Below are positions 2,504 to 14,406 of a stretch of DNA of 14,406 bases, one piece after another (position 1 is the first letter of the stretch; every line of letters starts with the position of its first letter). Position numbers and translations under genes: made by a program. The DNA comes from Candidatus Helarchaeota ASGARD archaeon Hel_GB_B (GTDB lineage Archaea; Asgardarchaeota; Lokiarchaeia; Helarchaeales; HEL-GB-B), in NCBI GenBank assembly GCA_005191425.1, contig SUPR01000087.1, forward strand, positions 1-14,406. The letters run 5' to 3'. Below the pieces are notes generated by a model that searched no databases, had not been told where the DNA came from, and worked only from the letters and a program-made list of their open reading frames with translations.

Positions 2504-4264
2504 ATGAATATTAAATCTGGCGGGATTATTAATCAAATTCTCGATTTAATCGATAATAATAAAAAGCTTGTTGAAATAAATCAAGATTTCAGAATTAGAA
2601 CTGGGATCTTAAATTTTTTTAAATCTCGCGCTGATATTATGGAATTCAGAAATTTTTTAAATTCATTCAAAAAAATTTATGATAAAAAGAGTGATATGGG
2701 TGATTTTCAAACACCAATGGAGCTGACAGATAAAATTTGCGAATATATTTCAAAAACGGGTTTTAAACCGTCTATACTACTAGAACCAACTTGTGGTAGT
2801 GGAAATTTCATTTTTTCAGCACTAAAATATTTTCCTACTTTAAAATATATTTATTGTGTCGAATTACAAAAAGAATACGATTGGATTTTTAAAGTAAATT
2901 TATTATTGAAATCATTTTCGACCAAAATTAATGTAGAAATCGAATTTTACAAGGATAATATTTTTTCTCATAATTTTTCTGACAAATTTTTTAAATTTTT
3001 AAATTCTCCTTTTAATAAACTTTTAATTTTGGGTAATCCACCTTGGATAACCAATACCCGGCTTTCAAAATTAAACTCTAATAATATCCCTATTAAATCT
3101 AATATAAAAGGTCATAGAGGTATTGAAGCTATCACCGGTAAAGGAAATTTTGATATCGCTGAATATATTATCATTAGCTTACTTGATCAATTTTCTATTT
3201 ATAGCGGAAAAATAGCTATTTTATGTAAAACTTCTGTAGTAAAAAATTTAATCAAAAATATTAACATATTGGACCTAAAAATTTCAAATATTAAGTCATT
3301 ACTGATTGATACGAAAAAAGAATTTAATATAAAAGCTGATGCATCTTTATTTATAGCAGATTTAGGTAGCGAAAAAGAAAAAACATGTAAATTATTATCT
3401 TTTTACAATCCTGACCATATTTATTCCGTTTTTGGATGGGCTGACGATAAATTTGTTTCTAATATGCAATTATATATAAAATTCAAATATATTGATGGAA
3501 AATCACAAATGACATGGAGACAGGGCGTAAAACACGATGCATCAAAAATTATGGTATTAAAAAAGCTGGAAACTGATTTATACATTAACGGCTTAAATGA
3601 GACTATACAATTAGAGGAAGATAGATTATATCCATTTCTAAAAAGTTCAGACCTAAAAAATAGAGTTATTAAAAATTCCGATAAAAAAATAATTGTAACT
3701 CAAACCACCCTAAATGATGATACCACATTACTTGCCAACAAATATCCTAAATTATGGGCATATCTTAATAGCCACTTCAAATATTTAGACAATCGAAAGT
3801 CTGTTGTTTATAAAAATAGGCCAAGATTTTCAATTTTTGGAATTGGTGATTATGCTTTTAAACCTTTTAAAGTAGCAATTTCGGGGTTTTACAAGGAACC
3901 AAATTTCTCTTTAATATTTCCCCACGAAAATAAACCTGTCATGCTCGATGATACTTGTTATTATCTATCTTTTAATAATCTTGAAAATGCATTTTTCACA
4001 TGGTTATTGTTGAGTTTAGATGAGATAAAAATGTTCTTAAAATCAATTGCCTTTTTAGACTCTAAACGCCCCTACACCAAAGATAAACTGATGCGAATAA
4101 GTCTAAATAATATTATTGACAATATTTCATTTGATACATTATTTGACCATTATAAGAAAAATTGCGAGCAGTTCATTTTTTATGATTTTAATGAAAATGA
4201 TTTTAATAAATTTATAAAGTGGAAAAAATCCCCAACTAAAAATGAAGTTTCTAACAATAATTAA
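2504..4264 (+). CDS. Solitary N6-adenine DNA methyltransferase, gamma class (type II-like)
   Basis: GDFQTP (motif X), LEPTCGSGNF (motif I, SAM binding) and GNPPW (motif IV), followed by a long C-terminal target-recognition region. No recognisable nuclease domain; only about 65 aa precede motif X. Confidence 0.85.
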   Translation: MNIKSGGIINQILDLIDNNKKLVEINQDFRIRTGILNFFKSRADIMEFRNFLNSFKKIYDKKSDMGDFQTPMELTDKICEYISKTGFKPSILLEPTCGSGNFIFSALKYFPTLKYIYCVELQKEYDWIFKVNLLLKSFSTKINVEIEFYKDNIFSHNFSDKFFKFLNSPFNKLLILGNPPWITNTRLSKLNSNNIPIKSNIKGHRGIEAITGKGNFDIAEYIIISLLDQFSIYSGKIAILCKTSVVKNLIKNINILDLKISNIKSLLIDTKKEFNIKADASLFIADLGSEKEKTCKLLSFYNPDHIYSVFGWADDKFVSNMQLYIKFKYIDGKSQMTWRQGVKHDASKIMVLKKLETDLYINGLNETIQLEEDRLYPFLKSSDLKNRVIKNSDKKIIVTQTTLNDDTTLLANKYPKLWAYLNSHFKYLDNRKSVVYKNRPRFSIFGIGDYAFKPFKVAISGFYKEPNFSLIFPHENKPVMLDDTCYYLSFNNLENAFFTWLLLSLDEIKMFLKSIAFLDSKRPYTKDKLMRISLNNIIDNISFDTLFDHYKKNCEQFIFYDFNENDFNKFIKWKKSPTKNEVSNNN

Positions 4265-6792: not shown

Positions 6793-7530
6793 TTATAATC
6801 TTTTTAATATTGTATGTCTATGGAGAAAATAACCTAAAACAAATAGAACAATTCCCCAAATACTTAATATAATGAGGTCGTTAAAAATTCCCAGCAGTCC
6901 CACACCACAAGCGCTTTGTAAAAGGTCTACAAAATAAGTTATTGGAGAACAAAGAGCTATATAAAAGAATGTTGGCGATAACTGAGAAAGGGGAATAAAA
7001 ATACCACTTATAAAGATTAAGGGGAATTTAATTAAAGAACTAATTGTCATTATATTTGCAGTTATATCAGTTGGAATAGCTGAAATTAAAGAACCTATTG
7101 ATGAGCTTATCCAAGCCAAAAGAAAATCTCCTAATATAAACCAAATGGTTATCCAGCCAGAAATGGGAAGTAATAATATCAGAAATACATAAATAATGGA
7201 AGTTATAACTACAGCATAAATCATAGAGGAAAGTGTTACACTAAGGATCAAGTCCAATAAAGTAATAGGACATGATATCGTCATTTCAAGGTTTTTCTCC
7301 CTTGTTTCCCATGGAAATATTACCGGACTTATAGCTGTTCCTAAAAAGAATACCGCCATTCCCAAAATTCCACTAAATAATTGTATTGGACTTATTGTCC
7401 TTCCTATTATCCACGCAAAAATCATAAATACTGGTAAAAGGACTCCAAAAACGAGCACTGGACCTTTTTTAAAATAAAGTTCTAAATTTTTTCTAATTAA
7501 TACCCATATCTGTCTCATTCGAACAATCAT
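6793..7530 (-). CDS. ABC-2 type exporter permease
   Basis: Six hydrophobic segments, PWETREKNLE loop, PLIFISGIFIP and SPITYFVD motifs. ATGA overlap with the upstream ATPase stop codon. Confidence 0.85.
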   Translation of the reverse strand: MIVRMRQIWVLIRKNLELYFKKGPVLVFGVLLPVFMIFAWIIGRTISPIQLFSGILGMAVFFLGTAISPVIFPWETREKNLEMTISCPITLLDLILSVTLSSMIYAVVITSIIYVFLILLLPISGWITIWFILGDFLLAWISSSIGSLISAIPTDITANIMTISSLIKFPLIFISGIFIPLSQLSPTFFYIALCSPITYFVDLLQSACGVGLLGIFNDLIILSIWGIVLFVLGYFLHRHTILKRL

Positions 7531-8450
7531 TTAATATCTTCCTCCAATATCTTTAGAAATATTTCTTCAAGTGATGATGGTTTTATCTCACAGGTTATAG
7601 GTTCTATTTTTAATTCTTTGATCAATTCTACAATTTTCGGAAAGTCATCAATTGTATTAGTAGTATAAAAATAAATCTTATTTTTCGTTGACGTTACTTC
7701 ATAAGAAATGCCAAGTTTTTCAAATAATCCGAAATTATCAAAAGGTTTTTCAAATTCTAGCAAAATTTTGGATGCCGGAGCAAATTTTTCACGTAATTCA
7801 TTTGGCGTACCTTTCGCTATGATTCGCCCTTTATTCAAAATTAAGACTTCATCACAGAGAAGATTGGCTTCGATTAAGTTATGTGTCGTTAATAATATAG
7901 TTTTCCCAGTATTTTTCAATTCGAGGATCTTGTTCCTTATAAATTGCAATGAATGAATATCTAGACCTGTAGTTGGTTCATCTAAAAAATAGAAATCTGG
8001 GTCATGCACCATAGCCATACTGATATTAAGTCTTTGTTTCTGACCTTTAGACAACCTTTTAGTGCGGTTATTTATCTTTTCTATAAGTCCAAAATCTTCT
8101 AAAAGTTTTAAACTTCTTGCTTTGCTAATCTTTTTAGGCATGCCATAAACTCCACCTATAAAAAGTAAATTTTTAATTGGGGAATAGTCCAAAAAAGCAT
8201 TGGATATTTCTGGAACAATACCTAATTTTGTTTTCCATTCCTTAGAACGAGGATTGAATGGCTTTCCATCTAATTTAATTTCTCCTGAAGTATATGGTAG
8301 GACTCCCGTTAGTATTCTAATAGTCGTAGTTTTTCCAGCGCCATTTGGCCCAAGTAACCCTGTTATCCTTCCTTCTACAAGGTCGAACGATATAGAATCT
8401 AAAACTTTATTTTGCCCAAAATATTTCACAAGATTATTAATAGACAGCAT
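7527..8450 (-). CDS. ABC-2 type exporter ATP-binding protein
   Basis: Walker A GPNGAGKT, signature LSKGQ, Walker B FYFLDEP, H-loop LTTH, and a C-terminal SLEEIFL segment typical of DrrA/CcmA-like ATPases. Confidence 0.95.
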   Translation of the reverse strand: MLSINNLVKYFGQNKVLDSISFDLVEGRITGLLGPNGAGKTTTIRILTGVLPYTSGEIKLDGKPFNPRSKEWKTKLGIVPEISNAFLDYSPIKNLLFIGGVYGMPKKISKARSLKLLEDFGLIEKINNRTKRLSKGQKQRLNISMAMVHDPDFYFLDEPTTGLDIHSLQFIRNKILELKNTGKTILLTTHNLIEANLLCDEVLILNKGRIIAKGTPNELREKFAPASKILLEFEKPFDNFGLFEKLGISYEVTSTKNKIYFYTTNTIDDFPKIVELIKELKIEPITCEIKPSSLEEIFLKILEEDIK

Positions 8451-8827: not shown

Positions 8828-9220
8828 ATGACAATACCAAATAAAAAAGATTTAGAACGGTTAGAGCGATATATTAGGGATTTTAAAAATTTACATGCGA
8901 TAAGTGCATCTAACTATATTTCAAATCTAAGAAATATAATTGAATCCTATCCTCTTAAACAAGTTAAAAAACAATTAGAAGTATTTAAAGCTGTTGAAAA
9001 ATTTAACAGGTTTAAAATTCTTATTTTACTTAACGAAAAAGATAAGATGTGCACTTGTGAAATAATTGGAATTTTAAATCTTTCACAATCTAATGTTTCT
9101 CACCATTTACAAATATTAGAAAGAGCTGAATTGATCACTAATTTCACACAAGGAAAATGGAAATTCTATAAAATTACAGAAAAAGGGAAAAAAATTATCC
9201 AATTTATATTAGATTTATAG
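8828..9220 (+). CDS. ArsR/SmtB family metalloregulator (winged HTH)
   Basis: RFKILILL...MCTCEI...LSQSNVSHHLQIL...QGKWKFYKIT. The CxC matches the alpha3 ELCVCD-type metal(loid) site. Confidence 0.88.
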   Translation: MTIPNKKDLERLERYIRDFKNLHAISASNYISNLRNIIESYPLKQVKKQLEVFKAVEKFNRFKILILLNEKDKMCTCEIIGILNLSQSNVSHHLQILERAELITNFTQGKWKFYKITEKGKKIIQFILDL

Positions 9221-9440
9221 TTATACTTATTTATATTTTTTATTTTACAAATGAAGATATATTGTTTAGTTTTTCTTTATATTCTTTTTTATGCTATTTT
9301 TTACTAATTGTAAATAAAAGATTTCTATTGGAAATGAATTTTTCCTAAAAATTTGTTATGTGTTTATTTTTTTAATTTATCATTGGTTTAGTTTAAGTAA
9401 TAAAAAGATACTTATTACTTATTTTGGTGATATAGTGTCA

Positions 9441-10103
9441 TTAAAACTGCTTTCGTCTAAATATTAAAATTATTAATGTCCAAATCAAGCAAGTTGCTAC
9501 AACACCCACGATTATTGAAAAAACCAAGGGGTCTAATTCAGGAAAAAAAATAGATGGCATTATTGAGATTAAAGAGAGTTGATTACCTATATATATTGAT
9601 AAAATAGCTGCTAAAGCAATTGATGACGATAAAGTACCAATAAGAATTCCTATAGAACATGATATCGACATTGCTGCAATGCTAATAGCAACTGATTTTA
9701 ATGTATCTTTTATCATGACACTAAGGGCAATATTTGATGTGATAACGTCTATTACGAATCCAAAAATAAGTGCAACTACTGTTGCAACAATAAGACACGA
9801 ATAAACTGCAAAAAATTTTGATAATAGAATATTTCTTCTTTTAACAGGCCTAATTAAGAATAATTCATAAACATGCTCTTTCTTCTCCCCTACAATTGAG
9901 GTACTTAAAATAACTGTAGCTAATGTACCCCCAAGACTGGCTATAATTAAACCTACAAGTGCAAAAACTGGCATTTCTTCTGATCCCACTTGAAAATAAT
10001 GTAGCAAAATTGAGATAACAGGAAACCCTATCCATAAAACTATCATTACTTTAGATTTATAAAAACTCTTCATTTCATTTATAAATAATAACCATAAACT
10101 CAT
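9441..10103 (-). CDS. ABC-2 type exporter permease
   Basis: Six hydrophobic segments and the SIVGEKKEHVYELFLIRPVKRRNILLSKF loop typical of ABC-2 permeases. ATGA overlap with the ATPase. Confidence 0.85.
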   Translation of the reverse strand: MSLWLLFINEMKSFYKSKVMIVLWIGFPVISILLHYFQVGSEEMPVFALVGLIIASLGGTLATVILSTSIVGEKKEHVYELFLIRPVKRRNILLSKFFAVYSCLIVATVVALIFGFVIDVITSNIALSVMIKDTLKSVAISIAAMSISCSIGILIGTLSSSIALAAILSIYIGNQLSLISIMPSIFFPELDPLVFSIIVGVVATCLIWTLIILIFRRKQF

Positions 10104-11059
10104 TTTATATTTCCTCCCACATATTTTAAATATACTTCTTCAAGACTTGGTTCTAATAAATTAAAATTACGAATATAACATTTTTGTTCAAGAATTTTAG
10201 CAAGAATTGTATTAATACATTCATCAATATTAGAATTTGGTGATAAATGTGCTATTAATTTATTTGTGTTAATTATTTCAATTGATTCAACACCTGGAAC
10301 CTTATCCAAATCATTACATTGTTTTGACCCTTCTGAAAAAATAATTTCAAGGTCATTTCCTACCTTAAAATCTCTTTGAAGGTCCTTTGGTCTTCCTACC
10401 TTCATAATTTTTCCATGATTTAAAATACCAATTCTTGTTGCGATATTTTGGACATCACTTAATATATGGGATGAAAGAAATATAGTTTTACCTTCATCTG
10501 CCAGTTCTTTAATTATCTTTTTTACTTGATATCTACTTGTTGGGTCAAGTCCCGATAGTGGTTCGTCCAATATTAATAACTCGGGTTTATGTAATAGGGC
10601 TTGAGCTAGCCTAAGTTTTTGTACCATTCCTCCTGAGAGATGCGTGATCTTTTTATTTTTTACATCTTCAAGTCCTACTAATTCTAATATATCTTGAATT
10701 CTTTTTTTTAAAGTATTTCTAGGCAATCCAGATAACATTCCAAAAGTATTAAGAATTCCTGATACAGTCCGCCACCTCTGAAACCCTGCTTCTTGTGGTA
10801 AATATCCTAAAATTTTATGAATGTCTTTTCTTATTTTACGAACTCTTTTTGACCTTATTAATACTTCCCCTTCAAAATCTTGGATCAGTCCAACTATAAT
10901 TTTTATGGTTGTTGTTTTTCCAGAACCATTTGGTCCTATATAACCAAAAATATCTCCTTTTTCAACCATAAAAGAAATGTTTTCTAATGCTCTAATATTT
11001 TTATAATTTTTTGATACATTTTTGAATTCAATAAATGCGCCATCAGAGTTCTCCGTCAT
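10100..11059 (-). CDS. ABC-2 type exporter ATP-binding protein
   Basis: Walker A GPNGSGKT, signature LSGGM, Walker B LLILDEP, H-loop LSSH and C-terminal SLEEVYL. The ATG at 11059 is preferred over the TTG at 11065 because a GGTGGA Shine-Dalgarno-like motif (11071-11066) lies 6 nt upstream. Confidence 0.95.
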   Translation of the reverse strand: MTENSDGAFIEFKNVSKNYKNIRALENISFMVEKGDIFGYIGPNGSGKTTTIKIIVGLIQDFEGEVLIRSKRVRKIRKDIHKILGYLPQEAGFQRWRTVSGILNTFGMLSGLPRNTLKKRIQDILELVGLEDVKNKKITHLSGGMVQKLRLAQALLHKPELLILDEPLSGLDPTSRYQVKKIIKELADEGKTIFLSSHILSDVQNIATRIGILNHGKIMKVGRPKDLQRDFKVGNDLEIIFSEGSKQCNDLDKVPGVESIEIINTNKLIAHLSPNSNIDECINTILAKILEQKCYIRNFNLLEPSLEEVYLKYVGGNIK

Positions 11060-11326
11060 CACCAATCCACCAAATTCAATTTAAATTGTTTATTTTCTTT
11101 TTTATTTTCTAGTAACTGCTAAAAATAAATGTATTCATTAAAAATTTCATTAAAAACCCTTATTATTAACCTTTTTCATATGGTTCAAATTGAAAATTTT
11201 TTAAATTAAACTTCCTTAAAAAATAAAATTTTGGTAGGTTGGGCAATAATTTAAGAAAAACTTGTGTTAATTATATTATATTAATGTTTACATTAAACTA
11301 GTTTAAACAAAAATAGAGTAAAAAAA

Positions 11327-14300
11327 TTAATCAATTGCTTCAATATATAGTTTTATTACTAAATCTTGAATTTTCCAATTTTTAGATTTATCCTGCTTAT
11401 CTTGTGGAATATTCAAAATGAAATCAATTCCATATGTTTGTTGTAGAACGTTACTTTTTATATTTTTAAGGTATATTTCAAATTTTTCCTTCGGAGTAGC
11501 TTCATAATATATTTTTATTTTTTCTCTTCGAGGTTTTAAACCCCTATCTTTTCTCATTTGTTGTATTCTTCGTATTAATTCGCGTTCAAATCCTTCCATC
11601 AATAATTCATCCGTCATTTGGCAATCAAGAACTATTATATAACTATATGTGGCATCAATTGCATATCTTTCCTTATCTATTGGTTCTATTTGAAAAGTTA
11701 TGTTTTTTGGATTTAAATGGAAGTCTTTTTTAAATTCGTTTAGTAAAAATGGTTTGTTTTCTGTAGCAAAATATTTGTATATGTCAAAAAGATCTCTTTT
11801 ATTAATAGATTCTTTTAATTTGGGTATATCTACATCTTCAATTTCAGGGTTGATTTTGTAGTCTATTGTTATCTTACTTCGGAGGTACTTGTCCTCAAAG
11901 GTGTCTAAAATATTTATTTTTTTAATATTTACCTCATTACTTATAATTTTTGTATATTTTTTAAGCGCTGGAGCGATCTTTGGTTTGGTGTAAATATTTG
12001 CTTGTGCTAAAGGTTGTCTAATTCGGATATTTTGTTTATTTCTAAGATTTCTTAATGCTTGAACAATATTCTGAACAATTTGAACCTCATTTTCTATACC
12101 TACATCTATCTGTTTCTCGTCATAATCTGGGTATGGACATAAATTGATGCTCTCTTCTTTATGATTTTTAAATAATTTTTCAGAATCAAGATATATTCGC
12201 TCAGACAAGAATGGTATAAATGGAGCAACTAAACGTATTAAATTGTCAAATATGTAGATTAATATTGCAACAATTAAATTTTTTTCTTCTCCATCAATTC
12301 TTTTACGAATTATTCTTATGTACCAATTTGAAAAATCATTTATCACAAATTTTTCTATTGTAGTAGCTGCAGGATAAATAAGATAATTGTTTAGATATTC
12401 AATAACTCCTTTTATTGTAGAATGTATTCGAGAAATAATCCATTTATCAATTGAAGATTCTATTTTAAAATTTTTGAGTTTAAATTTATCAATATTTTTC
12501 AAATCCTCTTTTGATAAGTTGAGTTTTAAATAGCGATAACTATTCCATAAAGTAACTATAAATTGATTGAACTTAGTTTTAATAGCTTTTAAAGATAATG
12601 CTTTATTTTTATATAATTCGCCACTTGAATAATAGTACCACCTAAATGCATCTGCTCCGTATGTCTTAAATATAGTCCATGGATCAATAATGTTTCCTTT
12701 ACTTTTACTCATTTTTTCGCCAAATTCATCAGTTACAAGTCCCGCACAAATAACATTTTTATACGCATTTGTATCAAATATAATCGTAGAAATTGCGTGT
12801 AATGTATAAAACCATCCTCTTGTTTGGTCTAAAGCTTCGGAAATAAAGTCATATGGGAACGATTTTTTAAATAATTCTTGATTTTCGAAAGGATAATGAA
12901 ATTGAGCAAAAGTCGCAGCCCCAGAATCATACCAGCAATCAATTACCTGGGGGACTCTTGTCATCTCGGAATTACATTTCGGACATTTTAAAACTATTTT
13001 GTCAATATAAGGTCTATGTAAATCTTGAATCGTATATTCTTTGTTTATTTGTTTTTCCTGTAGTTCTTTAATAGAACCTATACACTCTTTATAATTACAT
13101 TCATTATTTGTACATTTCCAAATAGGTAATGGAGTACCCCAATACCTATCTCTTGATAATGCCCAATCTTTTATTTCTACTAAAAAATTACCAAACCGGC
13201 CATGTTTAATATGTAATGGTATCCAATTAATTTTTTCGTTAAATTCAATTAGTTCATCCCGTTTTTCAGACATTTTTATAAACCATGATTTTTTAGCATA
13301 ATATAAAAGAGCTGTACTACACCGCCAACAAAATGGATAATCGTGTTCTATTTTCCCTTGACTAAACAATATTTTTCTTTTTTTCAAATCCTCTAAAATT
13401 GTTTTATCAGCCTTCTTGAAATATTTTCCAGCAACAAAAGAGATTTTATCATTAAAAGTCCCATCTTCATTAATTGGATTAAATACTGGTAGGCTATAGA
13501 TCTTACCAATATAAAAGTCATCTTCACCAAACCCTGGAGCTATATGTACAATCCCTGTCCCTCTATCAGTTGTCACAAAATCTCCATTAATTGTCCTATA
13601 AATATATTCGTGATATTTTGGTTCTATTTTATCTGATATATCGTATAGCGGTATATACTTCTGGTCAATCAAATCCGTTCCAAAATATTCTTTTAATATT
13701 TCATATTTGTCTTCAGATGAAAATACTAGTTCTAAACATTCCTTTGCCAATATATAATTTACTTCTTTATTTAATTCTTTATCAAAATATTTTATTTTAA
13801 CATATCTTGTGTCTGGATTTAATGCTAATGCAAGATTTGAAACTAAGGTCCAAGGCGTTGTTGTCCAAACTAAATAATAGGTATTTTCAATATTAGCCGA
13901 TTTAAACCTCAACACAATTGATGGATCTTCAACTTTTTTGTACCCTAATGATACTTCATGGCTTGATAAAGGTGTTTGACAACGAGGGCAATAAGCTATA
14001 ATTTTATAATCTTCTGTTAATAGTCCTTTATTCCAAATTTCCTTTAAAGACCACCATATTGACTCCATATAATTATTTTCTAATGTCATATATGGATTAG
14101 TCATATCCAGCCAAAATCCCATTCTATTTGTAAGTTCTTCCCAATCTGATTTATACTTAAAAATATTTTCCTTGCAGTATTTATTAAATTTCTCTATACC
14201 CACTTTAAGAATATCTTTTTTGGTTTTCAAATTTAGTTCTTTTTCTACTTCTATTTCTACAGGGAGGCCATGACAGTCCCAACCAGCTTTCCTAGGAACG

Positions 14301-14406
14301 TTATATCCTGACATAAATTTAAAACGATTAATTAAATCTTTTATAGACCTAGTTAATACATGATGAGCCCCAGGTCTACCGTTTGCTGTAGGTGGGCCTT
14401 CTATAA
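11327..14406 (-). CDS. ileS: Isoleucine--tRNA ligase, type 2 (IleRS2); 5'-truncated at window edge
   Basis: The frame is open from 14404 (IEGPPTANGRPGAHHVLTRSIKD) and continues through GWDCHGLP, CPRC, CP1 editing motifs WTTTPWTL and GTGIVHIAPGFGEDD, DWALSRDRYWGTPLPIW, DQTRGWFY and KMSKS. The type-2 C-terminus EGFERELIRRIQQMRK has no C-terminal zinc finger. Confidence 0.97.
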   Translation of the reverse strand, partial: IEGPPTANGRPGAHHVLTRSIKDLINRFKFMSGYNVPRKAGWDCHGLPVEIEVEKELNLKTKKDILKVGIEKFNKYCKENIFKYKSDWEELTNRMGFWLDMTNPYMTLENNYMESIWWSLKEIWNKGLLTEDYKIIAYCPRCQTPLSSHEVSLGYKKVEDPSIVLRFKSANIENTYYLVWTTTPWTLVSNLALALNPDTRYVKIKYFDKELNKEVNYILAKECLELVFSSEDKYEILKEYFGTDLIDQKYIPLYDISDKIEPKYHEYIYRTINGDFVTTDRGTGIVHIAPGFGEDDFYIGKIYSLPVFNPINEDGTFNDKISFVAGKYFKKADKTILEDLKKRKILFSQGKIEHDYPFCWRCSTALLYYAKKSWFIKMSEKRDELIEFNEKINWIPLHIKHGRFGNFLVEIKDWALSRDRYWGTPLPIWKCTNNECNYKECIGSIKELQEKQINKEYTIQDLHRPYIDKIVLKCPKCNSEMTRVPQVIDCWYDSGAATFAQFHYPFENQELFKKSFPYDFISEALDQTRGWFYTLHAISTIIFDTNAYKNVICAGLVTDEFGEKMSKSKGNIIDPWTIFKTYGADAFRWYYYSSGELYKNKALSLKAIKTKFNQFIVTLWNSYRYLKLNLSKEDLKNIDKFKLKNFKIESSIDKWIISRIHSTIKGVIEYLNNYLIYPAATTIEKFVINDFSNWYIRIIRKRIDGEEKNLIVAILIYIFDNLIRLVAPFIPFLSERIYLDSEKLFKNHKEESINLCPYPDYDEKQIDVGIENEVQIVQNIVQALRNLRNKQNIRIRQPLAQANIYTKPKIAPALKKYTKIISNEVNIKKINILDTFEDKYLRSKITIDYKINPEIEDVDIPKLKESINKRDLFDIYKYFATENKPFLLNEFKKDFHLNPKNITFQIEPIDKERYAIDATYSYIIVLDCQMTDELLMEGFERELIRRIQQMRKDRGLKPRREKIKIYYEATPKEKFEIYLKNIKSNVLQQTYGIDFILNIPQDKQDKSKNWKIQDLVIKLYIEAID

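Follow-up and report, generated by a model that had tools for sequence, protein, structure and literature searches.

The window analysed here is a whole contig (SUPR01000087.1, C170 in our numbering; 14,406 nucleotides) of a metagenome-assembled genome (MAG) of 3.54 Mb that comprises 182 contigs and is 93.7% complete. It ends within ileS2, a minus-strand gene for a type-2 isoleucyl-tRNA synthetase (IleRS2) whose first class I signature reads G-A-H-H in place of H-x-G-H. Our analysis indicates, with a probability of about 0.85, that this is a housekeeping enzyme, apparently the sole isoleucyl-tRNA synthetase (IleRS) of a Helarchaeales-like archaeon, and that the swap was inherited within archaeal IleRS2 and is not a recent bacterial import. 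Judged by its sequence, the gene is an intact type-2 IleRS with a HUP-2 catalytic domain. The swapped motif itself is already described and is common in bacteria. With the present case, this recently described and surprising exchange, in which the two most conserved positions of HIGH trade places without loss of function, reaches beyond bacteria into the archaea most closely related to eukaryotes.

The swapped signature and its enzyme

The ileS2 frame is open from position 14404 to the stop at 11327-11329. It gives 1025 translated residues that start with IEGPPTANGRP-GAHH-VLTRSIKD. As the window spans the entire contig, the gene is truncated at the contig end. The motif lies upstream of the open reading frame (ORF) given by a mechanical listing, because the ATG-started ORF begins only at 14314. 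A full-length counterpart of 1060 amino acids (P0002) was retrieved from a public protein collection. It is 100% identical across the entire query, and the window therefore lacks 35 N-terminal codons. P0002 is encoded on three other contigs. Two longer contigs, from other assemblies, carry it in an open full-length frame and match the window at 99.8% DNA identity.

In HMMER alignments, GAHH falls without gaps, column for column, on the HVGH of Thermus thermophilus IleRS (1ILE). It falls in the same way on the HVGH of Priestia megaterium IleRS2 (8C8U) and on the GVHH of the P. megaterium swap mutant (8C8W). The same HIGH columns are occupied in a 73-row MAFFT alignment. Gly at position 1 and His at positions 3 and 4 are in register with HxGH, as in the published G/AXHH exchange of IleRS2 (PMC10485003). 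The sequence-only reading of this DNA had placed GAHH at 14371-14360 of the minus strand, between GPPTANGRP and VLTRSIKD, had equated it with that exchange and had considered the gene not to be decayed. All three statements stand. The protein retains KMSKS and two editing motifs, TTTPWT and GTGIVHIAPGFGEDD.

An assembly or sequencing artefact, or a gene in decay, could be suspected since ileS2 is cut by a contig end in a fragmented MAG. We consider this negligible. Turning GGG..CAT into CAY..GGN, as any coding of HxGH would demand, takes at least five substitutions. Contigs assembled from four runs, each of a different study (hydrothermal-vent and marine-sediment metagenomes), span 14198-14406 and have identical motif letters; this comparison is at the level of contigs, not of raw reads, and one of the runs may be the assembly's own source. 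The open full-length frame on the other contigs, the intact catalytic and editing motifs and the fact that no other IleRS was found in the genome also argue against this explanation. GAHH recurs in relatives at 77%, 66% and 47-48% identity, and GxHH is invariant among relatives down to about 45% identity.

The assignment to the family is clear. The protein scores 866 bits against TIGR00392 (NCBIfam ileS; cut-off 621), covering profile positions 42-852 of 861. Besides KMSKS and TTTPWT, it contains the editing-domain (CP1) pattern GTGxVHxAPxxGxxD. The Pfam domains found are tRNA-synt_1, Anticodon_1 and DUF5915. The last of these (PF19302) covers residues 819-1022 with E = 4.5e-18 and corresponds to the type-2 C-terminal architecture; over these residues no other Pfam family was reported, and no zinc-binding domain of the IleRS1 type. 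Three CxxC motifs (CPRC, CWRC and CPKC) occur in the protein. The best solved structures are those of P. megaterium IleRS2 (777-788 bits; E = 1e-236 for the IleRS2 match), followed by T. thermophilus IleRS (766 bits), and IleRS1 structures reach only about 300 bits. In trees rooted with either valyl-tRNA synthetase (ValRS) or IleRS-A, the protein belongs to the IleRS2 clade (support 99-100). Asgard IleRS-A sequences (motif HLGT), which are 37-41% identical to the window protein, form a separate clade of their own (99-100), so the enzyme is not an archaeal IleRS-A.

G/AXHH was found in 86 of 163 bacterial IleRS2 of a representative set (Brkic et al. 2023, PMC10485003), where all 41 archaeal sequences had HXG(H/T). 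A 2026 follow-up (PMC13752280) distinguishes three clades, archaeal IleRS-A, IleRS1 and IleRS2, and confines 'GIHH' to the IleRS2 (HUP-2) catalytic domain. IleRS1 and IleRS-A are inactivated by the swap (PMC10485003, PMC13752280). Neither natural archaeal GxHH enzymes nor Asgard archaea are mentioned in the text of PMC10485003 or PMC13752280, although Fig. 1D of the latter may show such leaves. The IleRS2 of Deinococcus radiodurans (ALHH) and Streptomyces griseus share with the window enzyme the exchange of positions 1 and 3, the retention of KMSKS and of the editing domain, and a housekeeping role. The window enzyme differs from both in being archaeal (Asgard, Loki class), in belonging to a separate clade and in having Ala at position 2.

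A sole housekeeping enzyme in a class with several IleRS types

Of the named database proteins, those closest to the window's belong to Candidatus Helarchaeota (77%, 66% and 47% identity); Promethearchaeota, Asgardarchaeia and Odinarchaeota follow. The earlier suggestion of an archaeal and possibly Asgard host agrees with these source names. The MAG was searched with the window protein, with Asgard IleRS-A and with a third IleRS type described below. Only ileS2, ValRS (C126) and leucyl-tRNA synthetase (LeuRS, C128) were matched, and no second IleRS was found in this 93.7% complete genome. The GAHH enzyme thus appears, from gene content, to be the housekeeping and only IleRS of its host.

Among the 119 best database relatives (the window's own protein excluded), 62 have GxHH and 57 have HxGH. 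Names found with GxHH are Helarchaeota, Promethearchaeota, 'Hodarchaeota', Theionarchaea and Actinomycetota. Those found with HxGH are Thermoplasmata, Odinarchaeota, Asgardarchaeia and Syntropharchaeia. We also surveyed 400 Asgard genomes with the DNA pattern GPPTANG-xx-xxxH, in which the lead-in must be exact. The pattern is carried by 105 genomes. All 17 carriers in the window's class, the Loki class or Promethearchaeia (161 genomes), have GxHH, and all 88 carriers outside the class have HxGH. The motif is common enough for annotation pipelines to treat GxHH as normal for IleRS2.

When the proteins of the class were searched with an IleRS-A query, most of its genomes proved to use IleRS-A with the HLGT motif. 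IleRS-A accompanies a GxHH IleRS2 in only two of the 17 carriers (G001 and G178). In the other 15, which include the window genome and genomes that are 91-98% complete, neither IleRS-A nor any other IleRS type was found. The GxHH enzyme is therefore normally the housekeeping IleRS of its carriers and not an accessory gene. Its occurrence without a second IleRS and the invariance of GxHH in the clade are indirect signs that the swapped enzyme may stay catalytically competent. One Loki-class genome (G181, contigs C220 and C228) contains two GxHH IleRS2 genes, with GVHH and GIHH, that belong to different sub-branches of the Loki-class clade. This bin is 9% contaminated, and the two genes may reflect a mixed bin.

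The third IleRS type has the lead-in GPPFATGLP, about 955 residues and the motif HYGH. Its 39 carrier genomes fall into two genera of the class. The enzyme is similar to the eukaryote-like bacterial type and groups with bacterial sequences in trees. In at least three genomes (G197, G199 and G248; 92-99% complete), this short HYGH type is the sole IleRS found (953-963 amino acids; 818-832 bits to TIGR00392). IleRS-A, GxHH IleRS2 and the HYGH type are thus each the sole enzyme somewhere, and the class uses three IleRS types. A search for further loci with peptide patterns yielded mostly remote HYGH IleRS2 of the eukaryote-like bacterial type, at 35-41% identity.

In seven genomes (G207, G209, G011, G219, G227, G234 and G027), HYGH is replaced by QHGN, so that both HIGH histidines are gone. 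Examples are L159 (G027:C94:37500-40800) and L093 (G011:C41). KMSKS and the editing motifs are kept. Because IleRS-A is present as well in six of these genomes and the copy in the seventh, G207, is truncated after about 470 residues, the QHGN type looks like a relaxed and probably non-catalytic paralogue. Another IleRS, with GPPFANGLPHYGH, is encoded on a 6.8-kb contig binned as a Promethearchaeota archaeon (L011/L153, G179:C163). It pairs with that of a Patescibacteria single-cell genome (L012), with branch lengths of 0.11 and 0.13 and support of 100. The contig is probably bacterial and mis-binned; otherwise, the transfer would be very recent.

The sister species carries an IleRS2 that is 77% identical to the window's, on contig L160 (identical to G001:C311). 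There, the order is HTH - Trm56 - DUF2110 - DUF2122 - IleRS-A - IleRS2-GAHH - flavodoxin - ABC exporter, HTH denoting a helix-turn-helix gene. The IleRS-A (1057 amino acids, HLGT, L160:2753-5926, minus strand) is head to head with the IleRS2. In the window species, the order is HTH - Trm56 - DUF2110 - DUF2122 - 860-bp gap - IleRS2-GAHH - ABC exporter. No IleRS-A remnant was found in the 860-bp gap (best E = 4.5) or elsewhere in the window genome. The pair in one species and the gap at the same locus in the other indicate that the genus ancestor had both enzymes and that the window species deleted IleRS-A. Ancestors of the genus would thus have held IleRS-A (HLGT) and IleRS2 as divergent neighbours, and the window species would now live on the GAHH enzyme alone. 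The Helarchaeales IleRS-A of three genomes (L160:2753-5926, L156 and L157) have PMSKS in place of KMSKS, so that all three lack the first lysine of the second class I signature.

The sister arrangement recalls the P. megaterium pair of a fast, sensitive IleRS1 and a slow, resistant IleRS2. G001/L160 and G178 likewise hold two IleRS clades, an IleRS-A of the HUP-1 type and a HUP-2 enzyme with GxHH. In contrast to the Priestia pair, the sister species has an IleRS-A as partner in place of an IleRS1, with both genes side by side in divergent orientation, and the window species has lost this partner. On the Priestia model, IleRS-A would be the faster, mupirocin-sensitive enzyme; one Micrarchaeota IleRS-A was unexpectedly resistant (PMC13752280). 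A sister species with the adjacent pair and a window species without the sensitive-type partner offer natural test material for the idea of a trade-off between bacterial IleRS1 and IleRS2.

Descent of the GxHH clade

Three trees were calculated: a FastTree tree of 81 rows, an IQ-TREE tree of 73 rows under the LG+C20 posterior mean site frequency (PMSF) model, and a tree of 39 rows. The first two were rooted with the genome's own ValRS, and the motif columns were left out of the IQ-TREE data. IleRS-A is basal in both ValRS-rooted trees. In all three trees, the GxHH proteins of the Loki class form one clade (SH-aLRT, the Shimodaira-Hasegawa-like approximate likelihood ratio test, 99-100). Its interior broadly matches our coded families. 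Lokiarchaeales-type families make up one subclade, and two Helarchaeales families split off successively at the base, not together. Bacterial GxHH proteins (Actinomycetota, Bacteroidota and others) are placed elsewhere. In the 39-row tree, the Loki-class clade lies within an archaeal IleRS2 group (support 99) together with Thermoplasmata, Theionarchaea/Syntropharchaeia and the HxGH proteins of other Asgard archaea. Nesting in a supported archaeal IleRS2 group is seen in two of the three trees, those with fewer rows or a simpler model. On the 73-row tree, at least five to six changes of the swap state are required.

Approximately unbiased (AU) tests were used to compare groupings. Forcing the Loki-class and the sampled bacterial GxHH proteins together costs 62 log-likelihood units and is rejected (AU p=0.015). 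Forcing together all Asgard IleRS2 of this type costs 7 units and is not rejected (AU p=0.33). From these sequence comparisons, the simplest reading would be vertical descent of IleRS2 within Asgard archaea, with a single change from HxGH to GxHH on the stem of the Loki-class lineage. Because the window protein is in a separate clade within archaeal IleRS2, the swap in the Loki class most likely arose independently of the bacterial one.

The sequence-only reading had offered acquisition from exposed bacteria as one origin of the gene. Under this hypothesis, a resistance gene comparable to MupA/MupB or to the second ileS of mupirocin producers would have been recently acquired from bacteria after inhibitor exposure, and would have been added to the native enzyme or have replaced it. 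GxHH IleRS2 are indeed common in bacteria, and Actinomycetota with GVHH are among the 47%-identical matches. The gene is patchy in the class (17 of 161 genomes), and two pairs of ABC-2-type exporter genes follow just downstream of ileS2. However, the monophyletic class-wide clade, set apart from bacterial GxHH proteins, argues against such a transfer, as do its family-like interior and its place in a supported archaeal group in two of the three trees. The AU test rejects the joint clade, the nearest proteins outside the clade are only 45-48% identical, and conservation of the exporter neighbourhood ends at the genus. Staphylococcus plasmid MupA and MupB are type-2 IleRS homologues that confer mupirocin resistance, and the window protein aligns over its full length to their models. 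Yet its scores (795 bits for MupA, NF000257; 742 bits for MupB, NF000258) are far under the cut-off of 1900. The window gene differs from these in being chromosomal, in its apparent vertical inheritance and in the absence of a mobile context, and it falls outside their families. A recent transfer from bacteria is thus not supported by the sequences, and we regard it as very improbable.

Some points weigh against descent of the swap within archaeal IleRS2 and against sole-enzyme status. The archaeal IleRS2 backbone has open forks in the mixture-model and 39-row trees. More than one group could therefore be sister to the clade, and the branch to which the swap is assigned is provisional. Both AU tests were run under LG+G4 on 39 rows, and their groups had been chosen after inspection of a first tree. 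Alternatively, the swap may derive from a different archaeal GxHH lineage (Theionarchaea or the P0060/P0108 group) through horizontal transfer. The phylum survey needs an exact GPPTANG, and variant lead-ins would escape it. About 6% of the MAG is missing and a second IleRS could sit on an unbinned contig, so that the case for a sole enzyme is strong but not final. Finally, the natural GxHH enzymes that have been measured are two, both bacterial, from D. radiodurans and S. griseus (PMC10485003, PMC13752280).

Mupirocin, natural products and the downstream genes

How the swapped motif can work is known from bacterial IleRS2. Helix alpha-1 is shifted by 1.7 angstrom in IleRS2, the position-3 His sits beside adenine, and this His was modelled to clash with mupirocin (PMC10485003). 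The P. megaterium GVHH mutant 8C8W is the best-scoring structure, aligns without gaps over the motif region and provides a rationale for His 3 replacing His 1. By analogy with it, the tip of helix alpha-1 would be shifted in the window enzyme, allowing the position-3 His to fit beside adenine. A side-chain nitrogen of this His would take the place of the catalytic position-1 His, whereby isoleucine activation would be kept. The same His would clash with the nonanoic-acid tail and the ring of mupirocin, so that affinity for such mimics of isoleucyl-adenylate (Ile-AMP) should be very low. 8C8W was engineered from a canonical bacterial enzyme and loses up to 10-fold in kcat and KM (PMC10485003). 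By contrast, the window enzyme is natural and, going by the gene content of the MAG, evidently sufficient for growth as sole IleRS.

The natural ALHH IleRS2 of D. radiodurans has a mupirocin inhibition constant (Ki) of 6.6 mM, which reversion lowers 823-fold, and its catalytic efficiency equals that of canonical IleRS2 (PMC10485003). In two canonical IleRS2 that received the swap, Ki rose by a factor of about 200 or more. Across the three backgrounds, all bacterial, the effect of G/AXHH is 200- to 800-fold (PMC10485003). DaIleRS2, an archaeal IleRS2 from Candidatus Diapherotrites, loses only 2-fold when the swap is put in, and it resists 1 uM mupirocin (PMC13752280). DaIleRS2 and the window enzyme are both archaeal and HUP-2. 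They differ in that DaIleRS2 is naturally canonical and received its swap in the laboratory, whereas the swap of the window enzyme is natural (PMC13752280 for DaIleRS2). Millimolar Ki values, the mark of hyper-resistance, have been determined only for the natural D. radiodurans and S. griseus enzymes and for two engineered bacterial enzymes. Given three bacterial backgrounds and one archaeal tolerance test, mupirocin hyper-resistance of the window enzyme is a reasonable prediction by analogy; low sensitivity would likewise be expected of it as an IleRS2 (PMC10485003, PMC13752280).

Past exposure is a different question. The sequence-only reading had taken the motif to suggest contact with IleRS-targeting natural products. 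This is not supported: the swap is old, fixed in the class and reported to be almost neutral in catalysis in IleRS2 backgrounds, and so need not be a mark of antibiotic selection. Past exposure to IleRS inhibitors cannot be inferred from the motif because the swap is ancient and class-wide, is nearly cost-free in IleRS2 and lacks a conserved exporter neighbourhood. GAHH alone is no proof of antibiotic exposure.

What caused the swap can be read in two ways, neither of which affects the identity of the gene. The swap may be a near-neutral change, tolerated by HUP-2, that drifted to fixation in Loki-class IleRS2. Insensitivity to mupirocin would then be a by-product of no ecological meaning. The efficiency of the D. 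radiodurans enzyme, the small loss in the archaeal DaIleRS2 and the repeated changes of state on the 73-row tree are all consistent with this. The HUP-1/HUP-2 split is argued to be older than mupirocin (PMC13752280), and the clade is deep, its members being only about 45% identical. On the other hand, GxHH is invariant across the clade once gained, which indicates constraint but not its cause, and the repeated replacement of IleRS types in the class hints at recurrent selection on the target. We give this account a little under even odds.

The alternative starts, like our preferred reading, from a swap that originated inside archaeal IleRS2, with the stem of Loki-class IleRS2 as its simplest placement, and that was inherited since, independently of bacteria. 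It adds that natural products directed at IleRS, in the anoxic sediments of marine and hydrothermal sites, drove the turnover of three IleRS types, the two-enzyme genomes and the repeated losses. If so, IleRS would be an antibiotic battleground in archaea, and the G001 pair would be an archaeal counterpart of the fast/sensitive and slow/resistant Priestia pair. IleRS turnover in the class is compatible with selection on the target, and equally with the rate-tuning ideas proposed for bacteria. We hold this driver to be rather unlikely.

Table 1 Coordinates of ileS2, its motifs and its downstream neighbours in the window.
Feature	Position	Strand	Remark
ileS2, type-2 isoleucyl-tRNA synthetase gene	11327..14404	minus	5' end cut at contig edge
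GPPTANGRP lead-in	14372..14398	minus	typical of 'GPPTANG' branch of IleRS2
Swapped class I signature G-A-H-H	14360..14371	minus	GGG GCT CAT CAT, replacing H-x-G-H
Editing-domain threonine-rich motif TTTPWT	13847..13864	minus	conserved across all IleRS types aligned
Editing-domain motif GTGIVHIAPGFGEDD	13517..13561	minus	with conserved His and Asp
KMSKS loop	12701..12715	minus	second class I signature
Type-2 C-terminal domain DUF5915	11339..11950	minus	Pfam PF19302 match; ARD3 in PMC13752280
ABC-2-type ATPase, first pair	10100-11065		directly downstream of ileS2
ABC-2-type permease, first pair	9441-10103		directly downstream of ileS2
ArsR-type HTH gene	8828-9220		between the two exporter pairs
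ABC-2-type ATPase, second pair	7527-8450		
ABC-2-type permease, second pair	6793-7530		

The genes downstream of ileS2 could be taken for a resistance island, in which exporters and an ArsR-type regulator are linked to the synthetase. We rejected this interpretation, since the neighbourhood is not conserved beyond the genus. The sister species keeps one exporter pair only, with an extra gene between. No exporter pair was found near ileS2 in either of two inspected genomes of the Lokiarchaeales type, nor in the Helarchaeota relative that comes next after the sister species. All that this Helarchaeota relative has there is an MFS transporter gene, which lies upstream in the opposite orientation.

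Two minor observations concern the rest of the window. A 586-residue ORF for which no Pfam family is on record (2504-4264, plus strand) is flanked by a TtuA-like gene and a DNA cytosine methylase gene. At 9228-9379, in the spacer that separates the HTH gene from the gene for the ABC permease, the alignment to one of the longer contigs (L118, 99.8% identical) breaks. The two pieces overlap by 24 bases with an offset of about 65-90 bases, and a 125-base segment matches a second time at 84%. The break suggests a difference in repeat copy number between strains.

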